Positions 6,103-54,643 of a stretch of DNA of 64,000 nt are shown here, in pieces. Numbering within the stretch: the first letter of the stretch is position 1; each line of letters opens with the position of its first letter. Position numbers and translations under genes: made by a program. The DNA comes from a virus (lineage: Duplodnaviria > Caudoviricetes): the IMG/VR virus record IMGVR_UViG_3300043803_000445, positions 498 to 64,497 of that record; one strand, 5' to 3'. The notes below the pieces were generated by a model. The model did no database searches. It saw only the letters and a list, made by a program, of their open reading frames with translations, and was not told where the DNA came from.

Positions 6103-7174
6103 TTTCATCTCCTGTAAACAATAATGGTTTTGTTGGGTCTTTTGTCGATGGATTAAACGATAATACAATCGCACCAGGATATATCTTTCTTACTTCATAA
6201 GTGACCTGATCTTTTGGTGGTCTAGCAAATTGTGGGAAAAACATTTGAACTGAAAGATATTTACCTCTCCAATTTAACAGAATACTATAAGTAGATCCAC
6301 GAGACTGTATCCTTGTATATCCTTCATCTACATTATCTTTTTTTGTTTTATTTCCCCAATTTGCTGCACCAACTTTACGGCATTTGACTAATGCTCCAGA
6401 TGCATAAGCACTAGGCCAAATTTTATATCTAGATTTTACTTTTTCTTTGCAAGCATCTTCATTTACAAATTCTTCAGTCTTAACATTTTTTGCTTGTCCT
6501 GATCTATTTGGATTTGGATCTTCTTTTCTTTTTCTTCTTGCTGCTGCATCTTCTTCCTCATCTGACATATTTGCAGCCATTTTTGATGAACCGCATTTTG
6601 GTTTTGTGGTTTGTCCTGGTTGTTTCGCACAAGGAGCACCTGCAAACTTACCTCCTATTTGACGCCATCCTGGTACTTTTTTTCCTGTTTTTGGATTTGT
6701 TCCACTTGATTTTGTAAACCAATCATGAAGAGATGAATCACCAGATTTTGTTTCTTCACTAACACCTTTCATTTTTTTTGGTTTAATTAAATCAACAATT
6801 TCCAAAAATGTATTTCCATTTGCGTCTTCAATCGTAACTGTTTCCTTTACGTCTTTGAACTTCTTATGTTCTTTTTTTGCACTTGCTTCCATTTTTTTGA
6901 GACGAGTATAATAATCTGGAATTTCTTCAAGATGCTGAAGTGCAATATCAGTTGCTAGTGTTTTGTTTTTTGTATGTTCGTGTTCGATGGGCACACCCAT
7001 CTTAAGTTGATTTTCAATAAAAGATACATCTAAACGATGCTTTGCCGCAATTGCTTCAACTGTTTTATGTGATTTTACTTTAGGGCACTTTGCAGTTCCG
7101 TGAGTGGGGCATTCCATTCCCTTTGGACTTCCATTGCAACTTGCTTCTAAAATAAATTCCTGAAAAGTTTTCAT
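6083..7174 (-). CDS. Internal head / virion protein with capsid-targeting-like N-terminus
   Basis: N-term MKTFQEFILE resembles the T4 IPII/IPIII targeting sequence MKTYQEFIAE; modular basic segments (EHEHT...DYYTRL; WPSAYASGALVKCRK); late promoter at 7190-7197. Confidence 0.65.
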   Translation of the reverse strand: MKTFQEFILEASCNGSPKGMECPTHGTAKCPKVKSHKTVEAIAAKHRLDVSFIENQLKMGVPIEHEHTKNKTLATDIALQHLEEIPDYYTRLKKMEASAKKEHKKFKDVKETVTIEDANGNTFLEIVDLIKPKKMKGVSEETKSGDSSLHDWFTKSSGTNPKTGKKVPGWRQIGGKFAGAPCAKQPGQTTKPKCGSSKMAANMSDEEEDAAARRKRKEDPNPNRSGQAKNVKTEEFVNEDACKEKVKSRYKIWPSAYASGALVKCRKVGAANWGNKTKKDNVDEGYTRIQSRGSTYSILLNWRGKYLSVQMFFPQFARPPKDQVTYEVRKIYPGAIVLSFNPSTKDPTKPLLFTGDENESRRY

Positions 7175-7188
7175 TAGAAATTTTTTAA

Positions 7189-7611
7189 CTATTTAGAATC
7201 CATTAAACCTTGCTTCAATAATTTTTGAAGATCTGCGGTTGAACCAATAAAGACAGAGTTATTAACAGTGGAAGGACCTTTTATATCTTCTTCTTTAAGT
7301 TTCTTCATTTTGTGTTGCAAATCAATCAATTTATCTGTCACATCACCAACACTTTTAATTAATTGTCCTGCAACTTCATATGCTCTTGGACTATCACTTT
7401 GCTGTGCTAAATCCATAATATTATCAATTGCTTCTTGTCCTTTTTCAATTAATGAATATAGATTTCCTCTTGTATATTCGTAATCTTTATCACTCTCCTC
7501 ACCAAAAGTTGGTCTTGCTATTGCTTCTTTTGATTTTTTTACAATTTCTTTTGATACAGAAGTTGCTTCTATTTCTAATGCTTCGTCTATATTTTCAAAT
7601 TTGCTTTTCAT
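7189..7611 (-). CDS. gp16: Terminase small subunit gp16
   Basis: DYEYTRGNLYSLIEKGQEA, SPRAYEVAGQLIK, VFIGSTADLQK. Confidence 0.94.
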   Translation of the reverse strand: MKSKFENIDEALEIEATSVSKEIVKKSKEAIARPTFGEESDKDYEYTRGNLYSLIEKGQEAIDNIMDLAQQSDSPRAYEVAGQLIKSVGDVTDKLIDLQHKMKKLKEEDIKGPSTVNNSVFIGSTADLQKLLKQGLMDSK

Positions 7612-8666
7612 AATGATACGTCAATTCCCTTTGTTGTACTATAAATCTTACCATCACCAAAATCAAAACGAGATTCACTAAATCCAAAATCATCATCCAT
7701 TTCAACTAATTCATTATCTTCAACTGTAATCGCATCAATTGAATCCCCTTCATTGTGAGATTCAATTGATGTACCATCTTGCCCTCTTAATACAGTAAGA
7801 ATATTTTCAGAAATATTTTTAATATACATTTCTTCATTACCAATCATAATATAGGAACCCTCAACTAATGAGACAGCACTGGAAACATTAAATACAGTTA
7901 CTTTATCATCAATGTTTTGGGAAAGTGTTGTTGTATTGTCATTATTATAATCCTTAATTGCTCTTGGAGTAGCAGTATATCTTAATTGTCTTGATGCATT
8001 CTTAGTATCTGTATTTGTATAATAATCAACTTGAACTTTTTTGATTAATCCATCTGTACTATCAGCAATTGGACCAAATAGATATGTTTTTGCCGTAAAG
8101 TTCAATGTGTATACTAAAGCTCTCCTTTCTGTATAATTCCCTTCATAATTATCTTCCATATTAATTCCTTCAAGAGTTATTGGAATATCTTTTTTCTCAC
8201 CTATTGATGAAATCAAATTAATTGTTAATGTGAAATTTGGTTGAAATGCTGGAAGAATTTGTTCTACAATTTGTAGCATATCATCATTCAACTTAGTCAT
8301 GATACTAAGTTGGAATCCAATATTATATGGAACAGGCATAAAAACTTTAACTTGTTCTGTTCTATCAGTAGTTTTTATTGCCTTAAATGTTTGCAAGGCA
8401 GAAATTTTTCTGCTACTATCATATTTTAAACTCGTCATCTCAAAAGACATTCGAGGAAGAGTCATTGCAACTCTTTTCCTTAAATCTGGTTTTTGTTCTA
8501 CTCTTGCTAAAAACTTTTGAATTGGTCCATAAGCAATAGGAACTTTCATAAAACTATAATCAGTACCATCCTTTTCTTCGTGTTTGATATACACTTCATT
8601 AAAAAGTGTACCAAAAGCAATAATGGTTTTCCTGATTATTTCATTGTAACTATAAGTTCCTAACAT
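7608..8666 (-). CDS. gp15: Tail sheath stabilizer/terminator gp15
   Basis: FGTLFN, VPIAYGP, LPRMSFE, QIVEQILPAFQP; carries an extra C-terminal domain. Confidence 0.93.
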   Translation of the reverse strand: MLGTYSYNEIIRKTIIAFGTLFNEVYIKHEEKDGTDYSFMKVPIAYGPIQKFLARVEQKPDLRKRVAMTLPRMSFEMTSLKYDSSRKISALQTFKAIKTTDRTEQVKVFMPVPYNIGFQLSIMTKLNDDMLQIVEQILPAFQPNFTLTINLISSIGEKKDIPITLEGINMEDNYEGNYTERRALVYTLNFTAKTYLFGPIADSTDGLIKKVQVDYYTNTDTKNASRQLRYTATPRAIKDYNNDNTTTLSQNIDDKVTVFNVSSAVSLVEGSYIMIGNEEMYIKNISENILTVLRGQDGTSIESHNEGDSIDAITVEDNELVEMDDDFGFSESRFDFGDGKIYSTTKGIDVSL

Positions 8667-28498: not shown

Positions 28499-31400
28499 TT
28501 AATTTGAGTCGAATGTAAATGTAGTCATATCAAATGAAGCCCAGATAGTATCATCAAATTTTTTGTTTATACCATAAGCAAATGTATTTTCCACAGATGT
28601 ATTTGCTATTCCAGCTGGGTTAAACTCCGAAATTGTTCCAGAATATAATATTTTTTGACCTGTTTGGAAATTATGATTTGGAAGATTAATTATATCATTG
28701 TCAATATTAACAACACTATTGGAAGAACTATTAAATTCACGATAAAATAAAGGTGTTCCTTTACTAGTCAAACTAAAAGATTTAATTCCAACAACAGAAT
28801 TTCCAGGAAGTCTTCTTCTAATTTTTACATTAGAAGTTTGGGTTCCGTGATTTAATTTATGTGGAAGATTCAATCTTACACTTCCAACACCAATTTCAGT
28901 AATAACAGTATTATCTGGAATAAGTAAAGTGGAAAATCCAACATAATCACCAACATTTAAATTATCAGTAGTAAGATTTATATAATATGGATAAAAACTA
29001 TCAAACAATGCAGATGTTGATGCAATTGAAATGTATTCATTCGAACCATTAAATTTATCACTTATATCATCTATCAACAAAACTTTATTTGTTTTACTTG
29101 AAATATAAGGTTTAAGTGCTCGTCCAAAAATAGGTCCAATTACACCAACACCAGCAACGTTTGCTTCTGCTGCTCCAATATTTACCCTTTCGATAGACCC
29201 ATCTTCAAATAAACTTTCTTCATCTTCTGTGATTAATGAGAAATTATTTCGGTTATAAAATGATGACAAATTATCAATATTTACAACTAAATCTAATGTG
29301 GAATTTGCAATTCCAACTTTCAAATTTTTTGTAGAAGTAGATGAAATAAAACTAATTACATCCAAATCAGAAAATTCTTTAAATCCTGCTGGATGAATAG
29401 TAGAACGAACTGGTTCTTTCCATACATCATAAGCAATTTCACCCTTAATTGAATATGAGAATTTCTGATAATAAGAATTATCAGAAATTCTTTGTTGGTA
29501 ATTATTTAAAAATCCAATCTCATTACCAACATCATTAACTTTATCTCTTGACACTCCAAGTGATGAGTTCAAGTTAAATTTGTTGGTAAATTCAACTGTT
29601 CCATTTAAAAGTGATTTTTCACCCTTTAATTTATTTCCAACTTCCAATTCACCTTTTGCATCAATTAATCGTAATTGATTAATATCATTATCCCATCCGT
29701 TTTCCATAACAGTTGCTGAAAATACTGAATTTCCAACATTGTCAAATCCAGTAACTTTTTCTCCAGAAATGTAACTTAAATCATCAATGAGAACCATCTC
29801 AAATTCAGGCATATCTTTTTTATTGATGACAACTCCATATCCATAAGTATTAATATAATTACCCTCAAGATTATCTTGATTGAGATTTAAATTATCCTTT
29901 ACCCCAGTCATACTAAAAGTTACAGTAAAGTTTTCTGAACTTATTCCAGTTACAGTAAAAAACTTATACCCATAATCTTTTGAGTTAAAATTATCTTTTG
30001 TCCTATCTTGCTGCCTACATTTTTCTATAAAAATTTCATCTCCAACAGCGAATGGGAATATAGTTTCAGTTTTTCCATATCCTGTTGTGATTAATGGATA
30101 TAATTGAGTATCATTTAATAATTCTAAAGTAACTGTAGAACCATCATTTGTTGCTACAATATCATCAATCTCATATCCATTAGAATTGTTTATAGGTACA
30201 ATTCTCAATGGTGTTGTCAAATCATTAGTATTTTCAATAACTCTTACACCAACAATACTTCCACTTTGTAATTCTGCAGATAACTTTATCTTATCATTAC
30301 CAATAACTTTTAGTGATGGTGCAGTATTATATCCCCTTCCTCCTGTTGTTATGCCAATATAATCAATTCTTAAAATATCTTTAATTTGAACGATTGCTGG
30401 AGCACTTAAAAATGGTGTTAATGTGATATCAGTTGGGTAATTAAAACCGTCTTTAACTCTTTCCAAATAATCAACTTTTCCTATTGTAGAAGATGATGAT
30501 TTTAGAATTGCATTTTTGCCAGAAATAGTTTCGATTGAAGATATTTTTGGTAATTTTGTATATCTTTTTCCTCCAAAATTAACTTTTATTTTTGATATTG
30601 AACCAGTTGTATTCGTGGAATTTGTATCATAAAAAATAGTAGATACTCCACTCGAAGTTGTATATAATGTATTCTCTGGTTTTGTATTTAAATTAAACTT
30701 AAATGCGGTACTTCCAATTCCTATGATTGAATATTCATTATTAAATATGCTGGAAACAATTTTAATCCTATTATTCCCAACAACTTCTTTATCAGAAGAA
30801 ATCTGGAATAATTCAGAAAAAGAACTTTCTGATGGTATTAAATTGTAATATATTTCATTTGGAACATCAGTCGTTTGAGTATTTAATTTTCTATTACCAT
30901 TGTCAATATATTTAAAACTTTCAATTTCTTTAACAAAATTTGGATCTTTATACAATCTCAAATCCATCCCAGAAGCATCACTCAGATCAAAAGTTAATGA
31001 ATCACCTTTAGTTAAACTAATTGGTGGGTTTATAAGTGCTATACTGTGAATAGATGCACCAACACTTGTAAAACTAATGCAAGTTCCAACAGTTGCATCA
31101 TACAGATAATTTGACAATTTTATTTTATCTGGGTCTTGCTTTAGGATATAATAAGTTTTATTATCATCCAATCCACCAATAACAGTATTACCATTAGTAT
31201 AATAAACAACTTTATCACCAGTTTTTAATTTATTGTCAATTATAGTAATTTCATTTGTTTGTGTATTTACACCAACCGAAGAAGCATTAAAGTTAATTTT
31301 GTCTGTTGTAATTTTTCTAAGTTTAGGATCATATCTTAATTTTATTGTATTGGAAAAACTTGGATATACATTAAATTTTATTTTATCGTCTGTTTCTAAT

Positions 31401-39849: not shown

Positions 39850-40479
39850 TTAATTTAAATTTTTAATTTCGTACATATAATGATCGGATGTTTCGATTTT
39901 TCTTTTATTTTCAACCGAATACACAGTTAAGTCAATTTCATATCCTGGATTTTTGTCGATTCTATTAAATGTCCAGGCATTATCATACCAAATAATACGA
40001 TTATTTGGATATGCATAGTAATTTCCAGTTTCTACCTTGAATAAATGAGCACATTTATGTTCAGGAGTCTCTGAAAAATTAAGATCAGTGACTCCTTTAT
40101 TTTCCCATGACCAATCAAGAGTAAACATATAACTTCCAATCACCCTTTTTCCATCAGGACGAATTAATTCTGCTTGTAATCCAGCGAGACGAGCACGTTT
40201 TTGAACATCAACATACGGAGAAAAGCAGTCCCAGTACATAATATCCTCTAGAGGTTCTATTTCTGCATCTGATTTCCAACAAAAGGCGTGAAGAGGTCTA
40301 CGAGTCCAATTCACGCCATTTTCAAGGAATGCTTCAAATAAAGGGACTCTTTTTTCAATACTGGCAACACAATGTACATCACATTTAGTTACTTCACCGT
40401 GACCCTTTTTGTGATTAAAAAGAAATTCATTACGAATATAACAGGACCAATCTGGAAGACTGTGATTTAGATAAGCCAT
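39850..40479 (-). CDS. Conserved hypothetical protein
   Basis: 209 aa; MAYLNHSLP...WDCFS...FTLDW...EHKCAH...AYPNNRI. Confidence 0.7.
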   Translation of the reverse strand: MAYLNHSLPDWSCYIRNEFLFNHKKGHGEVTKCDVHCVASIEKRVPLFEAFLENGVNWTRRPLHAFCWKSDAEIEPLEDIMYWDCFSPYVDVQKRARLAGLQAELIRPDGKRVIGSYMFTLDWSWENKGVTDLNFSETPEHKCAHLFKVETGNYYAYPNNRIIWYDNAWTFNRIDKNPGYEIDLTVYSVENKRKIETSDHYMYEIKNLN

Positions 40480-40482
40480 TAT

Positions 40483-40620
40483 TTACCGTCCTTGACCTCG
40501 ATACTTTTTACGTGCTACATTGCGACTCGTAGCAGCATATTTAGTATTTCTACTAGCACCTTGTCGAGTATTTTTTGGAACACTCGCAATCTGCATATCC
40601 TTTCGACTCTTTTGCGCCAT
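40483..40620 (-). CDS. Small highly basic protein (45 aa)
   Basis: Not in ORF track; MAQKSRKDMQIASVPKNTRQGASRNTKYAATSRNVARKKYRGQGR; GGAG RBS upstream. Confidence 0.7.
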   Translation of the reverse strand: MAQKSRKDMQIASVPKNTRQGASRNTKYAATSRNVARKKYRGQGR

Positions 40621-40769
40621 TTTTAATTCTCCAACTAACGGTTTTATAAGGGGGTTTTTATAAAGTCTCTCAAGCCAATAAAAATGCCTCTATAAGACAA
40701 TAAAAACCTCATAGAGACATTCTATCATAACGTTTTAAAGAAGGTCAAGAAAGACCTTCCAGACACTTA

Positions 40770-41519
40770 TCAGATGATTCGTGTCTTTTCGTGTCCAACA
40801 CGAATCAAAGGATCACACCAAATCTCATATCCTTGTTCTTTTGCATCCAGACAGAATGAAACATCCTCTCCACACATATCTTGAACCTCTCCAGATTCAA
40901 AAACTTGCATCTTCGGTGCAAACCAAGGATACTCAAGACTTTCAAATACTCCTTTCTTAATCAATACCCATCCAAATCCAGTATAATCAACTGTAAATGG
41001 TTTACGACGTTTCTGAATCGTATCTAGTGTCTCGTGATTCATTACACCACCAGACTTTCGGAAATCATCTTCTTCCAACCAATGTGCAACAGACGTGGTG
41101 TGACCATCCTCAGTGCAATACCATCCAGCAGCAATATCCTTATCCATTGCAACAAGACGATAGAACTTCTCAGTGTCGAAGACAATATCACTGTCAATCC
41201 AGAGTTGATAATCATACTGCAATTTACCATCCCAAGGAATCTGCTTGGGTCCTCTGAGTACATTCGCACCAAGTACCTTGCATCGTGCAAAGTTTACCAT
41301 TGAAGAATAATCTTGACTAATCTGAATACTTGCACCACTCTGTACTAAATCAAAACAAAGTTGTACGAAGTTCTTCAAATAAATGTAAGATACTCCTCGT
41401 CCAGGAAGACAAAAAACAATTGACTTCCCACGAATCATTTCTTTTGCTGCTTCTAAATTAAACTCTCCTTCCACAGGTCCTGTGGGAAGTTTTGCTTTTA
41501 CTGTAAATCCTTTAGCCAT
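40770..41519 (-). CDS. GT-A fold glycosyltransferase-like protein
   Basis: LWIDSDI DxD motif, TGFGWVLIK, GEDVSFC, VGHEK. Confidence 0.75.
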   Translation of the reverse strand: MAKGFTVKAKLPTGPVEGEFNLEAAKEMIRGKSIVFCLPGRGVSYIYLKNFVQLCFDLVQSGASIQISQDYSSMVNFARCKVLGANVLRGPKQIPWDGKLQYDYQLWIDSDIVFDTEKFYRLVAMDKDIAAGWYCTEDGHTTSVAHWLEEDDFRKSGGVMNHETLDTIQKRRKPFTVDYTGFGWVLIKKGVFESLEYPWFAPKMQVFESGEVQDMCGEDVSFCLDAKEQGYEIWCDPLIRVGHEKTRII

Positions 41520-41562
41520 AAAATAATTTTTTCTCGATACTACATGATTTTACCACAGCAAC

Positions 41563-41733
41563 TCATTCATTGCAATGGTCTTCGTTTTTATTTAGATGTA
41601 CTTCAATATCCTTATCATTCCCCCCAGAAGTCCATACAAGTCCTCTGATCATTTTCAGATTTTCCTGTAAATCACTCTGTGGCACCTGACTTAATATTTC
41701 ATTGCCCTTAACTGAAATATTATACGTATTCAT
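41563..41733 (-). CDS. Hypothetical protein (56 aa)
   Basis: Not in ORF track; MNTYNISVKGNEIL...; GAGGA RBS, overlaps the upstream ORF end. Confidence 0.5.
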   Translation of the reverse strand: MNTYNISVKGNEILSQVPQSDLQENLKMIRGLVWTSGGNDKDIEVHLNKNEDHCNE

Positions 41734-41905
41734 CCTCTTCTATCTTTCGGAGTAAATCTTCAATCTCTTCTCTTAAACTATCATTGATCACCAATATTTT
41801 ATCAGTATCTAAACGATGCTGTATCGTATCAATCAATAAGTCTTTCTCATAATCATCAAAATCTAATTTCATTGTACTTTCAGGGCATTTTTTATTATAT
41901 ATCAT
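41720..41905 (-). CDS. Hypothetical acidic protein
   Basis: ORF track; probable start at MKLDFDDY. Confidence 0.5.
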   Translation of the reverse strand: MIYNKKCPESTMKLDFDDYEKDLLIDTIQHRLDTDKILVINDSLREEIEDLLRKIEEDEYV

Positions 41906-41907
41906 TC

Positions 41908-42648
41908 TTAATATTCAACAACAAGTCCCCAAATCTTTATATTATTACTTCTTGCATTAGAAAGATTCCTAGCAAGATCATTTATTGTTTGATTTTTATT
42001 TTTTGTTTTACTATAAACTAAGTTATAATTTTCATTTACCCATTCTCTCAAATTTTTTCCCTTCCATATTTTTCCAGTTAATGTATCCGTAATTGTATAT
42101 GTCTTGCAATTTGGTTCAGATGCATTCTCAAATCTACTAATCCATCTCAAATTTGTATAATGATTGTTAAGTTTATTTCTATCAATATGATCTATCTCAT
42201 TATATTCACAAGGATTGTCTACAAATGCTTTGGCAACTAATTGATGTATTGACCTTATAATTTGTTGATAGTTTCCATCACTATCCCAAATTGAAATATT
42301 CACGCATTGATATTGATGCTCTGGATATCTTGGGTTGCCCCTAAAAGAAGGTTTTAAATATATTAATCCATTTTCATCAATCTCTCCGTATTTTCCAGTT
42401 CTATCATATTTTCCAGGTCTGCGATATGCTCTTCCATCCTCAGTAATATAATATCCAGGATATTCAGTTTCTTTCATCCCTTTTGGTATTTTTACCTGGG
42501 GATAATTATAAACTACTTTTTGTTTTGGAACTGCAATTGGCATATTCCATTGCTCTCTGGGTTTTTTCATATAAACCCACTTCCCATCCTTTTTTATATA
42601 CTTAAAACCTTTCGCATTTGTCCTAATTGTTCCTTCTGAGTAATTCAT
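41908..42648 (-). CDS. HNH homing-endonuclease-like protein (NUMOD4/HNH type)
   Basis: YPGYYITEDGR, HQLVAKAF, IDHIDRNKLNNHYTNLRW...EN; start reassigned to MNYSEG because the upstream extension runs through non-coding repeats. Confidence 0.8.
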   Translation of the reverse strand: MNYSEGTIRTNAKGFKYIKKDGKWVYMKKPREQWNMPIAVPKQKVVYNYPQVKIPKGMKETEYPGYYITEDGRAYRRPGKYDRTGKYGEIDENGLIYLKPSFRGNPRYPEHQYQCVNISIWDSDGNYQQIIRSIHQLVAKAFVDNPCEYNEIDHIDRNKLNNHYTNLRWISRFENASEPNCKTYTITDTLTGKIWKGKNLREWVNENYNLVYSKTKNKNQTINDLARNLSNARSNNIKIWGLVVEY

Positions 42649-42829
42649 AATTTTATGTGGACCTTTTTGGAGAAATTTTTTTGCTGGAAATTTTTTTATA
42701 TTTAAGTGTATTTGACTGCCAAAAGCAAGACTGTGTAGACTACAGGGACCCATTAAAATTATATACGGGGGCAACGGTTTATAATAAGAATAACAAACAA
42801 CATAAAATAACTGTCTATTATAATAAACG

Positions 42830-43260
42830 AACAATAACGAATACTTTATATTCATTACTGTGTTATTAGAATAACAAACTATATGGGGGGTGTTGCTATA
42901 ACGAACGGGCACGATATAAGTCATTATACAACACTGTCAGATTCAAATACGAAACTGTATGGGGGGTGGTATAAATGACGAAGTGCTTCTAAAGTATAAG
43001 ATATGGAGACTACAAGTTTGTACACAGTTCTGTGTACAACGAATAGTATAGCACAGGACTGAAAGAATTACAAACTATATGGGGGGTGTCATATAACACT
43101 ACTGTTGTATTGTTATACTATAAGACGAGCATATACTTATACTGTGAGTACAACGAAGTGCTATAACGAACTGTTATGTATAACGAACTCATAGGACGAA
43201 GGAGTTTATAACACGAATAGTTTTCCACAGGGTATAACGAACTCTGTGGAATATAACGAA
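42830..43260. repeat. Dispersed iteron-like repeats (T)ATAACGAA and TATGGGGGGTG
   Basis: ATAACGAA near 42834, 42898, 43163, 43180, 43234, 43253 plus variants; ATGGGGGGTG three times (about 42883, 42959, 43079); palindrome TTGTACACAG-tt-CTGTGTACAA at 43018-43039. Confidence 0.75.
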
Positions 43261-43430
43261 TAGTTTTCCACAAGTTTTCCACAGGTTTTGAATAGTTTTC
43301 CACAGGGCAATTCTTATAAACCCTTGCAAACACTACAAATCATTATAAACCTGTGGAAAACTATTCTGTGAAAATCATTACTTTCCCCTATAGGAAATGA
43401 ATGAAACCTGTGGAAAACTATTTTTCCACA
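43221..43430. promoter_or_regulatory. Cluster of cyanobacterial-type DnaA boxes (TTTTCCACA); putative origin or DnaA sink
   Basis: Perfect boxes at 43221, 43264, 43275, 43296, 43422 (+) and 43352, 43409 (-); near-matches at 43245 and 43367. Confidence 0.7.
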
Positions 43431-43504
43431 GGCACGAGACTTATAAGAATTGTCGAGATTCTGTCAATATGTGTTGTGCCAGTCCTAGGAGTGTCTGTGT
43501 GCCC

Positions 43505-43533
43505 TTGACTTTTTTTGCGGTTTATGGTATAAT
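43505..43533 (+). promoter_or_regulatory. Consensus sigma70 promoter on the plus strand
   Basis: TTGACT-17nt-TATAAT with extended TG; palindromic operator upstream at 43475-43496. Confidence 0.75.
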
Positions 43534-43749
43534 GCGGGCTTAGACAACAAGAACTAGAGGGGTTTAGAGAAGCATAAGAACAAGAACTAGAGGCATTTAC
43601 ATCACATAATATAACACTATCATTATAACACAACAAAACACTCAACTATGTTTTTTAATACATTTAATTTAATTATCAATTAAAACATTCTTACATATCA
43701 AATGATAATTATCTCTTATGCTTGAGTGTTAATCTCTTCCATCTGATCT

Positions 43750-43971
43750 TCATTGATTCAATGTAATCAGTTGTGATTGAATATCTTCAATCTCATTCAC
43801 ATCATCATACTCTGCTAAATCTACTGGATGAAACTCATTCAAATTGATTGTATTATCAGTATAGATCGGAGCATAGAATAGTTCATACTCTTCACCTAAC
43901 TTATAAACACAACCGTGATCTTCTTTGTGTAGGATAATCATTTCAGTTTTGTTGGCAGAGTTTAATAGCAT
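43750..43971 (-). CDS. Hypothetical early protein
   Basis: ORF track; acidic, ELFYAPI motif. Confidence 0.55.
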   Translation of the reverse strand: MLLNSANKTEMIILHKEDHGCVYKLGEEYELFYAPIYTDNTINLNEFHPVDLAEYDDVNEIEDIQSQLITLNQ

Positions 43972-44113
43972 CAGTAATCGAAGTAGTCAAATACTTACAA
44001 TCACCATTGGTGTTACATACGGCATAAACTTTTTGTTGAGTGTTAATGTCGTAAGTGAAACGGATAGTCATTAGATCAGTTAATGAATTGATAAAAATCA
44101 GGCACCGAGAGAA

Positions 44114-44287
44114 TTAAACTCGTGACAGTGCGTCAGTTTTTTGCTTCGGATTCTGTGTTTGTTTAATCCAGGTGGAAGTTCTGCGAGAATAAACTTGTGA
44201 AGGAAGTTTAGATTTGCCCTGAACTTCATTGATGAGTTCAATGAAGTGAATAAAGAATTGCCTCTCCATTCGTTGCTCGGTGGTCAT
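44114..44287 (-). CDS. Hypothetical early protein
   Basis: Start reassigned to MTTEQR, downstream of the promoter at 44310-44338. Confidence 0.5.
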   Translation of the reverse strand: MTTEQRMERQFFIHFIELINEVQGKSKLPSQVYSRRTSTWIKQTQNPKQKTDALSRV

Positions 44288-44309
44288 TGCTTGACTCTGA
44301 ACTTCGTTC

Positions 44310-44338
44310 ATCATAGCACGGATCTGGGGGTTTGTCAA
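44310..44338 (-). promoter_or_regulatory. sigma70-type early promoter
   Basis: TTGACA-17nt-TATGAT on the minus strand. Confidence 0.7.
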
Positions 44339-44388
44339 GGGGTCTACGGTTCTTCTACCTATCAGCATCCCTGATGGGTATGCTGGAC

Positions 44389-44616
44389 TCAGATGAGTTC
44401 GAGATTATCTACAATCTCAACCCAATAACATTTTTTATTTTCTTCATCTTGTGTAGATTTTACAAGATTCTTTTTGACAAGAGAACTCAATACACCAGCA
44501 CAAACTCTTGGATTATTAAATGGATCAAGTTCATGTAACCATCCACATTTGGGTTGGTCCATTCCTTGTGAAATGGAATTGTAAAGAAGTTGTTCTTTGT
44601 CAGTGAGTTTCATCAT
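44389..44616 (-). CDS. Small winged-helix-like protein
   Basis: LTDKEQLLY...GVLSSLVKKNLV pattern. Confidence 0.45.
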   Translation of the reverse strand: MMKLTDKEQLLYNSISQGMDQPKCGWLHELDPFNNPRVCAGVLSSLVKKNLVKSTQDEENKKCYWVEIVDNLELI

Positions 44617-44625
44617 TAAATCAAA

Positions 44626-44880
44626 TCAGAGTTGAGACAGTACCCACATCATCGCAGATACTTCCTGTTTAGTATTCCAAGGACAAACGTCTTCAGTCAT
44701 ATTTCCATTCGGTCGGAAGATTGCAACTTCATAAGTGTTCTCATTGATATTACCATACAATCCACAATTCGGTGGACCAGCAACTACACTAATCTCCCAA
44801 CCATTCTCAAACTTATACCTTGCACCAATCGCACCAGGAATACCATTCAGATGCGGTTGAAATTGAAGAAGATCAAACAT
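44626..44880 (-). CDS. Hypothetical early protein
   Basis: FENGWEISV...YEVAI motif; AAGGAA RBS and TATAAT upstream. Confidence 0.65.
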   Translation of the reverse strand: MFDLLQFQPHLNGIPGAIGARYKFENGWEISVVAGPPNCGLYGNINENTYEVAIFRPNGNMTEDVCPWNTKQEVSAMMWVLSQL

Positions 44881-44911
44881 TTGGAGTTCCTTTATGTGTG
44901 AGAGTATTATA

Positions 44912-45196
44912 TCAAATAGAATGAGGAAAACTCACTTCAGTCCAAGGAAGAGTTTTCAGTTCTTCATCGGTAAATTGAATACCATCATCAAGTCGTGCTT
45001 CATTCTTATAGAGATAGAACTGCTTAAAATTAACAACAGTCCCTCTCAAATCCCCATCTTCATCTACTTGATAGACAAGCACATCACAAAACTTATTGCG
45101 GTCCCAGGTGAGAATAGTACATTTGCGAATAGGTGCTTTTTTTCCCTCAACATCACCATAAGATGGAATGGGATAATCAGTAAAGGCATCAAGCAT
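44912..45196 (-). CDS. Hypothetical early protein
   Basis: AFTDYP...WDRNKFC; first gene after the promoter cassette at 45220-45279. Confidence 0.6.
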   Translation of the reverse strand: MLDAFTDYPIPSYGDVEGKKAPIRKCTILTWDRNKFCDVLVYQVDEDGDLRGTVVNFKQFYLYKNEARLDDGIQFTDEELKTLPWTEVSFPHSI

Positions 45197-45219
45197 TTGG
45201 AGTTCCTTTGTGTCTCTGT

Positions 45220-45279
45220 ATTATAGGGCATCCAGTGCCCCATTGGGGAGTGTAGTGTGCCACTAAAACAAGTGGCACA
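45220..45279 (-). promoter_or_regulatory. Early promoter cassette: palindrome TGTGCCACT-N6-AGTGGCACA plus TGCCC-TATAAT
   Basis: Palindrome 45256-45279, -10 box 45220-45225; type example of about 15 copies in 43.4-63.9 kb. Confidence 0.8.
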
Positions 45280-45293
45280 TCCCAACCTTAGAC

Positions 45294-45623
45294 TCACACA
45301 GTTTGATGAGACAATGCATATTTCACAATCTCAGTGCGATTGTTCTTATACTCAAGAATCAAATCTACAACATTTCGCAAATCATCAGGTTCAACTTCTT
45401 CATCATTCTCAATTGCTGCAAGTTCATTGAAAATAGAGGCAACCTCAAAATCACTATTAAACAAAATATCTCGGTGATTATCAATTTCCAGATAATCATC
45501 CACTGCATCAGAACTCAAACGACAAGGAATATCAGGTGATAGCATACCCAACGTTGCAAGACGTTCAGCAGCACCAACTACCCACAGAACTTTGCACTCA
45601 TCAATTGAAAGATTGCGATTCAT
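45294..45623 (-). CDS. Hypothetical early protein
   Basis: 109-aa ORF. Confidence 0.6.
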   Translation of the reverse strand: MNRNLSIDECKVLWVVGAAERLATLGMLSPDIPCRLSSDAVDDYLEIDNHRDILFNSDFEVASIFNELAAIENDEEVEPDDLRNVVDLILEYKNNRTEIVKYALSHQTV

Positions 45624-45667
45624 TGTATTAGGAATAAAGAAGAAAAAAAGAGAAAGGGATGTTTAAC

Positions 45668-46342
45668 TCACACCCCACAGAGTTGTTTTGCCACAGAACC
45701 AGATGCTTGACGGTTCAAAGAAACACCAGCACCTACGTTTGCACCAGAATAAGCACCAGCACCACTAGCACCATTCATCTTCTTGGAACGTCCGAATCGC
45801 ATCGTGGAGAGTTTATTCTTCACTGCATCGGCATCATCGTGAACTCGATTCTCTGCGAGTTTCATTTCCTTCAGACGTTCCGCAACTTTATCTGCAAATG
45901 CCTTACGGAAATTAAGTTTGAAACTACGAGAGATCACAGTTCCTTTGATGTCGCACATAATCTTTTCTGCTTTATGTGCAACTTCTGCCTCTTTCTCCAT
46001 CACCTGAACAAGGTAATCATAATAGAGTCGCACTTGGATTTGTTGTGCTTCACTACCGATGATTTGCAGAGACTTGGAATCACCATTCTTCATATATGCT
46101 TTTGCATCATAGAAGTTAGCAATCGCATTAGCAAGAGTGGTCAGTGCAACATTGATTCTCTTGAAAGAAACAAACTCTTCATCAAGAACTTGAGTTTCAG
46201 TTGCTTCGATGATCGTAACACCATACTGCTTGCACAGTTTATCAATCATCTTAGCAGCAGCATCTGCCTCACCCTCAAAAGAAGTTCCATTCTGAAGTTT
46301 CAGGATGGATTGAATCTTTGCGATGACTTGCTGACGATCCAT
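45668..46342 (-). CDS. DUF2786-like protein
   Basis: N-term IAKIQSILKL...EADAAAKMIDKL..QYG; C-term FRKAFA..V.ERL and AY..GA.VG..VSL. Confidence 0.65.
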   Translation of the reverse strand: MDRQQVIAKIQSILKLQNGTSFEGEADAAAKMIDKLCKQYGVTIIEATETQVLDEEFVSFKRINVALTTLANAIANFYDAKAYMKNGDSKSLQIIGSEAQQIQVRLYYDYLVQVMEKEAEVAHKAEKIMCDIKGTVISRSFKLNFRKAFADKVAERLKEMKLAENRVHDDADAVKNKLSTMRFGRSKKMNGASGAGAYSGANVGAGVSLNRQASGSVAKQLCGV

Positions 46343-46367
46343 TAGGTTCCTTTGCTTGTGTCTCTGT

Positions 46368-46425
46368 ATTATAGGGCATCCAGTGCCCCAGTGGGGGACA
46401 TTAGGGACAGTTCAGAAACCGTCCC
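46368..46425 (-). promoter_or_regulatory. Early promoter cassette (GGGACAGT-N6-ACCGTCCC variant)
   Basis: Shares a 35-bp exact repeat with 45208-45242. Confidence 0.75.
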
Positions 46426-46439
46426 TCTCAACACTGGAC

Positions 46440-46628
46440 TCAGGCAGAGATAGCATAGAGTTTGTTGAACTCATAAGCACCATCTTCACTCTCAAGTGCC
46501 TGATAAACAATCACATTCTCACCAGACAATTCAACACTCCAATCAAGTGCATCTTCTCTTGCATTATCAAGATCATCATACCATTCGGCATCAATCAGAT
46601 CAAAAGAAACAGGGCAGGAAAGAAACAT
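46440..46628 (-). CDS. Hypothetical acidic protein
   Basis: A.EDALDWSVEL.G..V motif. Confidence 0.6.
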   Translation of the reverse strand: MFLSCPVSFDLIDAEWYDDLDNAREDALDWSVELSGENVIVYQALESEDGAYEFNKLYAISA

Positions 46629-46661
46629 TGGAATTAAAGAGTAAATGAACTAGAATTAAAC

Positions 46662-46814
46662 TCAGGCAGCAACTTGTTCGGTCACTTCCTCATTCTGAAC
46701 TTCGGTGTTGCTCTCATCAGGAACAATCACATTCAGAATATCCAGAATATCATTTCCAGTCTGACCCTTGCGGAGCATACCGAGCATCACATCACGAGAG
46801 AAATCAACAGTCAT
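46662..46814 (-). CDS. Hypothetical protein
   Basis: MTVDFSRDVMLGMLRKGQTGNDILDIL; start reassigned. Confidence 0.55.
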   Translation of the reverse strand: MTVDFSRDVMLGMLRKGQTGNDILDILNVIVPDESNTEVQNEEVTEQVAA

Positions 46815-46970
46815 TTTAAGAATAATAAAGTAAGTTGGACGTTTGTGAGAAGTGATGAGGTTTGATAACAGCATACTTGCCAAGATGTCAGTTGACGTTA
46901 TCGAGGTGGTCTTATTGCCTCCCTCACCACCCCTTTAATATAGCACTTTTTGGGGTCTGTGCTCTTTTAG

Positions 46971-46994
46971 TGTGCCACCAGAACAAGTGGCACA
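46971..46994 (-). promoter_or_regulatory. Early promoter palindrome
   Basis: TGTGCCACC-N6-AGTGGCACA. Confidence 0.75.
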
Positions 46995-47030
46995 TGGTAT
47001 CATTGGACTCATGTGGGACAGATGTAAGAA

Positions 47031-54554: not shown

Positions 54555-54567
54555 TAATAAAATATAA

Positions 54568-54640
54568 CAGGCGTATTAGGATTCGAACCTAAGATGAGGA
54601 GGTAGAAGCTCCTAGTGATAATCCACTTCACCATACGCCC
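54568..54640 (-). tRNA. tRNA-Arg(UCU)
   Basis: GGGCGTA/TACGCCT acceptor stem, AGGAG-CTTCTAC-CTCCT anticodon arm, GGTTCGAATCC T arm; CCA not encoded. Confidence 0.92.
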
Positions 54641-54643
54641 AAG

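Follow-up and report, generated by a model that had tools for sequence, protein, structure and literature searches.

The IMG/VR viral contig IMGVR_UViG_3300043803_000445 (Duplodnaviria; Caudoviricetes) was analysed over a window of 64,000 nucleotides (positions 498 to 64,497 of the record, nearly the whole of its 64.5 kb), and within a composite non-coding region of this window (42649..43749, 1101 nt) a dense array of seven perfect copies of the 9-mer TTTTCCACA, the DnaA-box motif of cyanobacterial origins, was found upstream of a promoter and an AT-rich block. The array suggests that a lineage of T4-like cyanophages may recruit or soak up the DnaA of its host. The role favoured here, at a probability of about 40%, is that the array and the module around it would together form a phage origin that is assisted by host DnaA and activated by transcription, in the manner of oriF and oriG of T4, and the evidence for this claim is comparative sequence evidence throughout.

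The window stems from a T4-like cyanomyovirus; its gp6 baseplate wedge protein shares 63% identity with the counterpart in Synechococcus phage S-SCSM2R and 59% with the one in S-SSM7. In addition, gp6 and further cyanophage families were recognised among the window proteins (PHROG and Pfam), all long open reading frames (ORFs) of the window lie on the minus strand and the G+C content is ~32%. With a completeness estimate of 33% the contig covers about one third of the phage genome, and the results on gene absence given below apply to that part alone.

The box array and its likeness to cyanobacterial DnaA boxes

A count of TTTTCCACA across the 64-kb window, which had been proposed as a check by an earlier reading of this DNA (hereafter the sequence-only reading), returned eight copies, seven of them at 43221-43430 and the eighth at 28587, compared to a mean of 2.16 in dinucleotide shuffles of the window, where 0 of 100 shuffles reached eight; by a Poisson estimate, the chance of finding seven of them in 210 nt is ~2e-19. 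Four of the boxes are direct repeats on the plus strand (43221, 43264, 43275 and 43296, within 43221..43304) with start-to-start spacings of 43, 11 and 21 nt, while the other three (within 43352..43430) are found at 43352 (-), 43409 (-) and 43422 (+), the last two forming an inverted pair with a 4-nt spacer. The claim of seven perfect boxes in both orientations within 210 nt is thereby confirmed, and the same is true for the two near-matches that had been reported with them: TATTCCACA at 43245-43253 (-) carries a single mismatch, and TGTGAAAA at 43367-43374 is read as a box that decayed through a 1-nt deletion, because a perfect box is aligned at this place in four of four relatives. It had also been noticed that the boxes mostly share an extended context, and indeed the 13-mer AGTTTTCCACAGG surrounds five of the seven and is absent from the rest of the window. 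As single-stranded DNA, the box cluster has a strong predicted fold arising from its inverted repeats (z = -9.8).

The identification of TTTTCCACA as the DnaA-box consensus of cyanobacterial oriC agrees with passages of two papers in which it is given as the DnaA-box motif of cyanobacterial origins. In passages of the same kind, it is reported to account for seven of the eleven repeats in the origin of Synechococcus elongatus PCC 7942, and a paper on Cyanothece gives 1 to 12 boxes per cyanobacterial oriC. To this can be added the context of the boxes on chromosomes, as seen in 28 cyanobacterial loci gathered with a three-box pattern and containing 108 clustered boxes: G precedes 69 of these at -1 and follows 77 at +1 and 46 at +2, the base at -2 is A or G for 89, and the AG-box-GG context of the phage boxes equals this chromosomal flank preference. 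In 28 phage loci, 37 of the 53 spacings between same-strand neighbours fall into peaks at 11-12 and 21-22 nt, and in 32 chromosomal loci 62 of 83 fall into peaks at 11-12 and 20-22 nt; both sets of loci were gathered with patterns permitting gaps of 1-30 nt, which do not impose these peaks. The sequence-only reading had allowed for a phage protein that needs only the extended 13-mer, but this 13-mer context is the chromosomal one and, because flanks and 11-/21-nt spacing match those of chromosomal clusters, it is no pointer to a different binding protein. Two properties of an oriC are accordingly present in the window, namely a cluster of consensus boxes of the host clade (seven perfect in 210 nt) and a helically phased array (43, 11 and 21 nt, with the 11-12 and 21-22 nt peaks recurring across phage loci).

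Among 401 sampled cyanobacterial genomes, 95 are matched by the 236-nt cluster at E<=0.01, mostly via its tandem pair, and the tandem arrangement TTTTCCACA-AG-TTTTCCACA is also found in a chromosomal cluster located between dnaA and dnaN. These host matches are confined to 40-44 nt comprising boxes and short spacers, at 84-88% identity, and recent capture of the array from a host origin, which was considered as its source, has left no sign in the 401 genomes beyond matches of this length around the boxes. Three cyanobacterial genomes of 2.5-2.6 Mb (loci L266, L267 and L268) contain 7-8 perfect boxes in origin-like clusters, and at L266 an AT-rich stretch, TAG-TAG-TAG-TAG and GGGGC lie beside the boxes, which constitutes a DnaA-trio unit. 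The three clusters are far from dnaN, and L266 and L267 are flanked by genes for an ArsA-like ATPase and an O-antigen-ligase-like protein; the regions upstream of dnaN in two of the 2.5-2.6-Mb genomes (G401 and G279) hold 0 and 1 near-boxes. In a small, low-GC cyanobacterial genome of Prochlorococcus size (1.7 Mb, G126), positions 1231-1395 of locus L360, upstream of dnaN, contain six copies of the Prochlorococcus-like TTTTCTACA and no perfect TTTTCCACA, from which TTTTCTACA can be taken as a concerted host variant of the box.

Conservation of the array and of the module around it

Conservation of the cluster among related phages had been proposed as a test, and it holds in part of the lineage. 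When viral contigs were scanned for pairs of boxes no more than 30 nt apart, at least 116 stretches were obtained; among the matches listed, 23 contain four or more boxes in 300 nt, and 15 of these 23 have three or more ORFs in common with the window. A four-box phasing of 22, 11 and 21 nt recurs in many of the contigs with box clusters. The whole spacer is homologous in L108, L044, L065 and L028, the region 42649-43749 being conserved along its length in the first three, and its best-conserved piece is the box core, with 90.6% identity to L108 over 138 nt. In an alignment of the window with four relatives, identity over the five sequences reaches 85.9% in box columns vs 70.8% in the spacers between boxes. 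The boxes at 43264, 43296 and 43352 are perfect in all four relatives, those at 43275, 43409 and 43422 in three and that at 43221 in one, so that six of the seven are perfect in three or four of the four. Thus, the array looks selected rather than accidental, purifying selection being suggested because orthologous boxes persist in related viral contigs and because their flanks and their 11-/21-nt spacing agree with those of chromosomal clusters.

An unbiased sample started from the anchor gene (phrog_1574): its 80 best relatives were picked regardless of boxes, and 39 of them have at least 2500 nt of upstream sequence. Seven of the 39 carry at least three boxes per 300 nt, and clusters are found at 6 of 11 loci where the anchor is at least 86% identical and at 1 of 28 below that value. 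When 27 one-mismatch variants of the box were scanned in the 80 relatives, only TTCTCCACA was found to cluster, and only in L289, where the usual architecture is present ~1150-1500 nt upstream of the phrog_1574 homologue with all five boxes, including a distant inverted copy, in the form of TTCTCCACA. A host origin matching this variant was sought in the 401 cyanobacterial genomes, and TTCTCCACA pairs were detected in five of them, approximately the level of a reversed-pattern control. Phage clusters of TTTTCTACA were also considered; of 117 viral matches five share an ORF with the window and none is in the syntenic module, and those sharing an ORF show a regular 27-45-nt spacing and look like other tandem repeats. 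No gene among the neighbours co-occurs with the cluster in more than 3 of 7 cases, in what is an underpowered test, and spacer DNA gave no match to cultured phages at E<=1e-5 and only short, box-driven matches at E<=1.

Box arrays have also been found in other phages. Two high-GC siphovirus-like contigs with terminase, portal and capsid genes (L071 and L119) each have six perfect boxes in 300 nt adjoining the terminase end, and a separate 43-kb contig has boxes at both ends (L072 and L050), the G+C content of all these being 0.54-0.58. Since arrays are present in these contigs, they are not confined to T4-like cyanophages. Short matches to the box cluster were seen as well in microviruses of animal guts (H52, H53, H56 and H61), one of which has nine matching places.

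With regard to the surroundings of the array, a sigma-70-type promoter with an extended -10 element (TTGACT, 17 nt, TGG-TATAAT; 11 of 12 consensus matches plus TG) is located at 43505..43533 on the plus strand, where it opposes every gene of the window, with an expected start near 43540. Among the sequencing runs listed for this stretch none is recorded as RNA, and one with a small share bears the label 'RNA? (probably DNA)'. The predicted transcribed leader contains two 21-nt direct repeats (43546-43566 and 43579-43599, +; family D8, 90% identity), no structure was detected in the predicted transcript (RNA fold z-score -0.31) and no conserved ORF was seen 3' of the promoter in the leaders compared. 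About 100 nt downstream of the promoter lies an AT-rich block (43632..43711, core 43651-43673) which, at 83.8% A+T, belongs to the top 0.25% of 80-nt windows and is a candidate unwinding element; a T4-type R-loop origin is characterised by an early or middle ORF-less promoter that reads into an AT-rich stretch, and such an arrangement is seen here. A second AT-rich stretch at 42780-42860 is in the top 1%, and both of the AT-rich stretches that the sequence-only reading had placed near the cluster are therefore real.

Alignment of contigs on this opposing promoter defines a module of constant order, in which the promoter is followed by a similar leader start, by 2 to 7 or more lineage-specific direct repeats and by the AT-rich core. 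The leader repeats of relatives share a short purine-rich ...ATTTA core, the promoter is kept in four of four aligned relatives and found near box clusters in 13 further contigs, and the AT-rich core 43651-43673 is invariant in four of four aligned relatives and recognisable in S-SCSM2R. The module occupies one syntenic place upstream of the baseplate genes. Relative to the promoter, boxes are located upstream in the window, L108, L043, L060, L063, L127, L111, L279, L280 and L283, downstream in L021, L094, L128 and L091, and on both sides in L284, L290, L043, L060, L063 and L127; the module is without boxes in L294, L309, L282, L321 and L316. Judging from these alignments, the conserved non-coding module is the wider unit at this place, and the boxes have been added to it facultatively.

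Smaller groups of boxes are present in the same zone upstream of the baseplate genes in cultured phages, with four within ~660 nt in P-SSM7, four within ~860 nt in S-CAM22, three in tandem in Syn1, three in S-PM2 and an inverted pair in Syn9; in this zone no clustered boxes were found in P-SSM2 and P-SSM4. Whole-genome counts, when compared to a reversed control, amount to 12 v 0 in S-CAM1, 7 v 0 in S-CAM22, 6 v 1 in P-SSM7, 7 v 2 in Syn1 and 8 v 1 in S-PM2, and are lower in Syn9 (4 v 3), P-SSM2 (4 v 1), P-SSM4 (1 v 3), S-SCSM2R (1 v 2) and S-SSM7 (2 v 3).

The non-coding region as a whole is bounded by an HNH endonuclease gene on one side and by a small ORF of the early region on the other. 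Four families of repeats, a single strong promoter and two stretches rich in A+T are found in it, and it is the largest stretch of the window without minus-strand ORFs. That the cluster lies in the largest non-coding gap, as had been claimed, holds provided that the in-frame ATG at 42648 is the start of the HNH ORF, in which case the gap measures 1101 nt and the runner-up 195 nt. The listed ORF of this gene reaches 42924, matches to PHROG HNH families and Pfam HNH_3 begin at residue 109, and the DNA to the right of the ATG is conserved as non-coding in relatives without the HNH gene; the ATG at 42648 is the probable start, giving a gene at 41908..42648 (-). A homologue was found in none of the 7 relatives that bear a cluster and in 3 of the 32 that do not; because it is missing from most relatives, the gene is probably a mobile, homing-type insertion between anchor gene and spacer. 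The left half of the region accommodates two further repeat families, both conserved in L044 and L108: ATAACGAA, with six of the window's seven copies at 42834..43260, all on the plus strand, and TATGGGGGGTG, whose only three copies in the window (42882, 42958 and 43078, +) lie within 42882-43088 and each end a 44-nt repeat (family D1). The synteny anchor is the conserved, glycosyltransferase-like phrog_1574 gene (40770..41519, -), and the non-coding module is located upstream of it and of the baseplate genes gp25, gp6 and gp7. An Rfam scan of 40000-47000 yielded nothing credible, with no family at E<=1 apart from a chance-level microRNA match. Elsewhere, a tRNA-Arg gene (anticodon TCT) was found at 54567-54641 (-), and a weak match to PhotoRC-I RNA at 40727-40761 (-), with 18.3 bits and E = 0.37, is far under the gathering score.

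A possible DnaA-assisted origin and competing explanations

The boxes would bind host DnaA with a likelihood of roughly three in four, because they have the exact consensus, chromosomal flanks and phasing, because they appear to be under purifying selection and occur in unrelated phage types, and because the contig encodes no DnaA-like domain of its own, DnaA domain IV not having been detected at E<=1 in the third of the genome covered. No DNA-binding family was recognised among the neighbouring ORFs (PHROG and Pfam). An origin is favoured as the role of the array because the module combines a promoter without an ORF, direct repeats and a conserved AT-rich block at one fixed syntenic site. These motifs, their conservation and phasing, the promoter consensus and the AT-rich block are what the sequence shows; that DnaA binds, that the promoter is active, that an R-loop forms and that the module is an origin is inferred, and these steps may be connected as follows. 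Early in infection, host RNA polymerase would fire the promoter at 43505-43533, pointing against all genes, and an unstructured transcript would run via the direct repeats into the AT-rich block at 43632-43711, where it might open the duplex or form an R-loop and in this way provide an entry point for the phage helicase loader. DnaA, oligomerising on the helically phased boxes just upstream, could help to open or stabilise the region, or could couple firing to the DnaA state of the host. As phage copies rise the array would also soak up DnaA, as a by-product rather than as its main role. An extension of this proposal, put forward tentatively and with some doubt, is that a T4-like cyanophage lineage has wired host DnaA into its replication start, that the module is the primary cyanomyovirus origin and that boxes have been repeatedly gained and lost, so that relatives would differ in heeding the DnaA state of the host.

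Several observations weigh against the origin proposal. When the 40 nt adjoining each phage box were scanned with a regular expression, no DnaA-trio with GC cluster was detected at any of the seven, and the nearest block of at least 80% A+T is ~200 nt away from the last box, on the far side of the promoter. Lacking a DnaA-trio, dnaA or dnaN, and with its strongest AT-rich block (43632-43711) at this distance, the array is not a full copy of an oriC. From the claim of a host-DnaA-binding oriC mimic, the part concerning host-DnaA sites is thus upheld by consensus, flanks, 11-/21-nt phasing and orthologous conservation, while mimicry in the strict sense is not supported, the boxes moreover being optional in the module. 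The inverted pair with 4-nt spacer (13 nt from start to start) occurs 15 times in the 28 phage loci vs once in the 32 chromosomal ones. A cluster is lacking in 32 of the 39 unbiased relatives, the position of boxes with respect to the promoter varies among contigs, and in L289 all five boxes have changed to TTCTCCACA. The module is also present without boxes in unannotated gaps of the cultured S-SCSM2R (L009, ~7585-7698) and S-SSM7 (L010, ~7100-7160), whose whole genomes contain 1 and 2 scattered boxes, respectively, and, being found box-free in most relatives, it would appear to have a role that does not need DnaA. Cumulative GC skew, another of the checks proposed beforehand, is monotonic in the window and in the whole genomes of Syn9 and S-SCSM2R and shows no turning point; it is uninformative, saying little either way because all genes are on one strand. 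Finally, the contig covers only about one third of the phage genome.

The sequence-only reading had named, as its other option, a sink comparable to datA, in which the array would titrate host DnaA as phage genomes multiply, its place in the module being merely permissive; initiation on the host chromosome would be shut down as a consequence, and nucleotides and replisome parts would be freed. The seven perfect and presumably high-affinity boxes equal the 7-8 in the origin-like clusters of 2.5-2.6-Mb genomes, the facultative presence and variable position of the boxes fit a role without strict geometry, and both the missing DnaA-trio and the smaller box groups in the same genome zone of P-SSM7, S-CAM22, Syn1, S-PM2 and Syn9 can be understood in this way. 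However, the strict helical phasing of the four direct boxes (22-11-21), kept across distant contigs, would be needless for a pure sink, and the array is consistently tied to one promoter/AT-block module instead of being placed in any spacer. Host DNA is in any event degraded by many cyanomyoviruses, and titrating DnaA would then be superfluous; a sink as the principal role is considered unlikely. On the other hand, DnaA might act on transcription, either by tuning the opposing promoter or as a roadblock that stops early read-through into the late baseplate genes, in which case the module would serve as a transcriptional insulator or as an antisense-RNA unit and not as an origin. In Escherichia coli, DnaA acts as a transcription factor and is able to stop a polymerase during transcription where it occupies its boxes, and the phage module does lie at the border of the small-ORF early region and the baseplate genes, with a promoter opposing the flow of all genes and with minus-strand terminator-like hairpins preceding it in relatives. 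What makes such a regulatory role improbable is that box positions range from ~-330 to +200 relative to the promoter, which is hard to reconcile with one activation geometry, that an AT-rich block with conserved core and direct repeats has no obvious part in an insulator, and that no terminator-like site was found in the window's own spacer.

It is also conceivable that the boxes are sites for a phage-encoded protein, that is, iterons of an initiator or regulator recognising, or evolved to copy, the DnaA-box sequence. The excess of palindromic pairs with 4-nt spacer would suit a dimeric protein, the joint change of all five boxes in L289, where the architecture is kept, resembles co-evolution with a binding protein, about two thirds of the genome lie outside the contig and the other repeat families in the spacer must have other ligands. 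Nevertheless, flanks and 11-/21-nt phasing equal those of chromosomal clusters, the contig has no DnaA-like DNA-binding domain and the neighbouring genes no DNA-binding family, no neighbouring gene co-occurs with the cluster in more than 3 of 7 cases, and the same boxes beside terminase genes in unrelated high-GC siphovirus-like contigs argue for a shared host factor. Hosts show concerted variants too, as illustrated by the six TTTTCTACA upstream of dnaN in the 1.7-Mb genome, and the change in L289 could track the host; the chance that a phage protein is the ligand is rated as small. A complete lack of function, with the boxes as repeat expansions or as captured host-origin scrap drifting in a tolerant spacer, would account for the patchy distribution (7/39), for one decayed and one mismatched box and for tandem 11-nt units, which can expand via slippage as in L289. 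This is nevertheless very improbable when one considers that orthologous boxes stay perfect while spacers diverge (85.9% vs 70.8%), that the same four-box phasing is found in contigs whose anchor protein is only 78-80% identical, and that host matches of only 40-44 nt at 84-88% give no sign of recent transfer.

Significance and comparison with known systems

T4-like phages are taught to be independent of the host initiator. DnaA boxes are known in plasmid-prophage and lambdoid systems, and so is the datA sink. No report linking cyanophages to DnaA boxes, the TGTGGAAAA motif included, was found in a literature search that covered part of the subscription papers, nor was a report of this module in T4-like cyanophages, a published mapped start site in the zone being possible. 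In the accessible part of one review, a predicted single theta origin of Syn9 is the only mention of such an origin. The candidate origin offered here is a conserved module without ORFs that keeps its place in the genome and, in some members of the lineage, has a number of perfect boxes equal to that of a host origin. It would provide a testable link between phage replication and the cell-cycle machinery of the ocean's main primary producers, or, if it is a sink instead, a host-takeover device made of DNA only. In S-SCSM2R and S-SSM7, where no annotation marks the module, it is open to bench work, both phages being in culture.

Among phages, the accessible passage of a computational report on phage G describes oriC-like regions with DnaA boxes and an AT-rich region, predicted by an origin-finding program; that case concerns another phage group and host, and the passage gives no comparative evidence. 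When set beside a cyanobacterial oriC, the array described here has the same 9-mer, flank preference and 11-/21-nt phasing, a similar number of boxes and opposed sub-arrays, but it differs in lacking the DnaA-trio/GC-cluster unit and linkage to dnaA or dnaN, in having its AT-rich block ~200 nt away behind a promoter and in being optional within its lineage. The datA locus of E. coli, which works through titration or through hydrolysis of DnaA-ATP, is similar in that it is a dense cluster of high-affinity boxes at a distance from the chromosomal origin, whereas the phage array resides on a multi-copy lytic phage genome and is tied to a promoter/AT-block module.

Iteron origins with DnaA boxes, such as P1 oriR, pSC101 and RK2, likewise contain boxes, direct repeats and an AT-rich stretch within ~0.5 kb, but the phage considered here is a lytic, T4-like one, its direct repeats are found in a transcribed leader and no Rep-type initiator gene was recognised in the ORFs flanking the module, in a contig covering 33% of the genome. 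The T4 origins oriF (uvsY) and oriG (gene 34) are R-loop origins, in which a persistent RNA-DNA hybrid primes synthesis of the leading strand, and are composed of a promoter with an AT-rich unwinding stretch downstream. To our knowledge no T4 origin uses DnaA, and cyanomyoviruses, as far as we know, lack MotA and AsiA. The promoter of the present module is of the host sigma-70 type instead of being MotA-dependent, host DnaA boxes and direct repeats lie on its flanks, and its R-loop is a proposed one. The helicase loader gp59 is annotated in the records of the T4-like relatives Syn9, P-SSM2 and P-SSM4, and the phage module shares with oriF and oriG the arrangement of an ORF-less promoter with an AT-rich stretch downstream.

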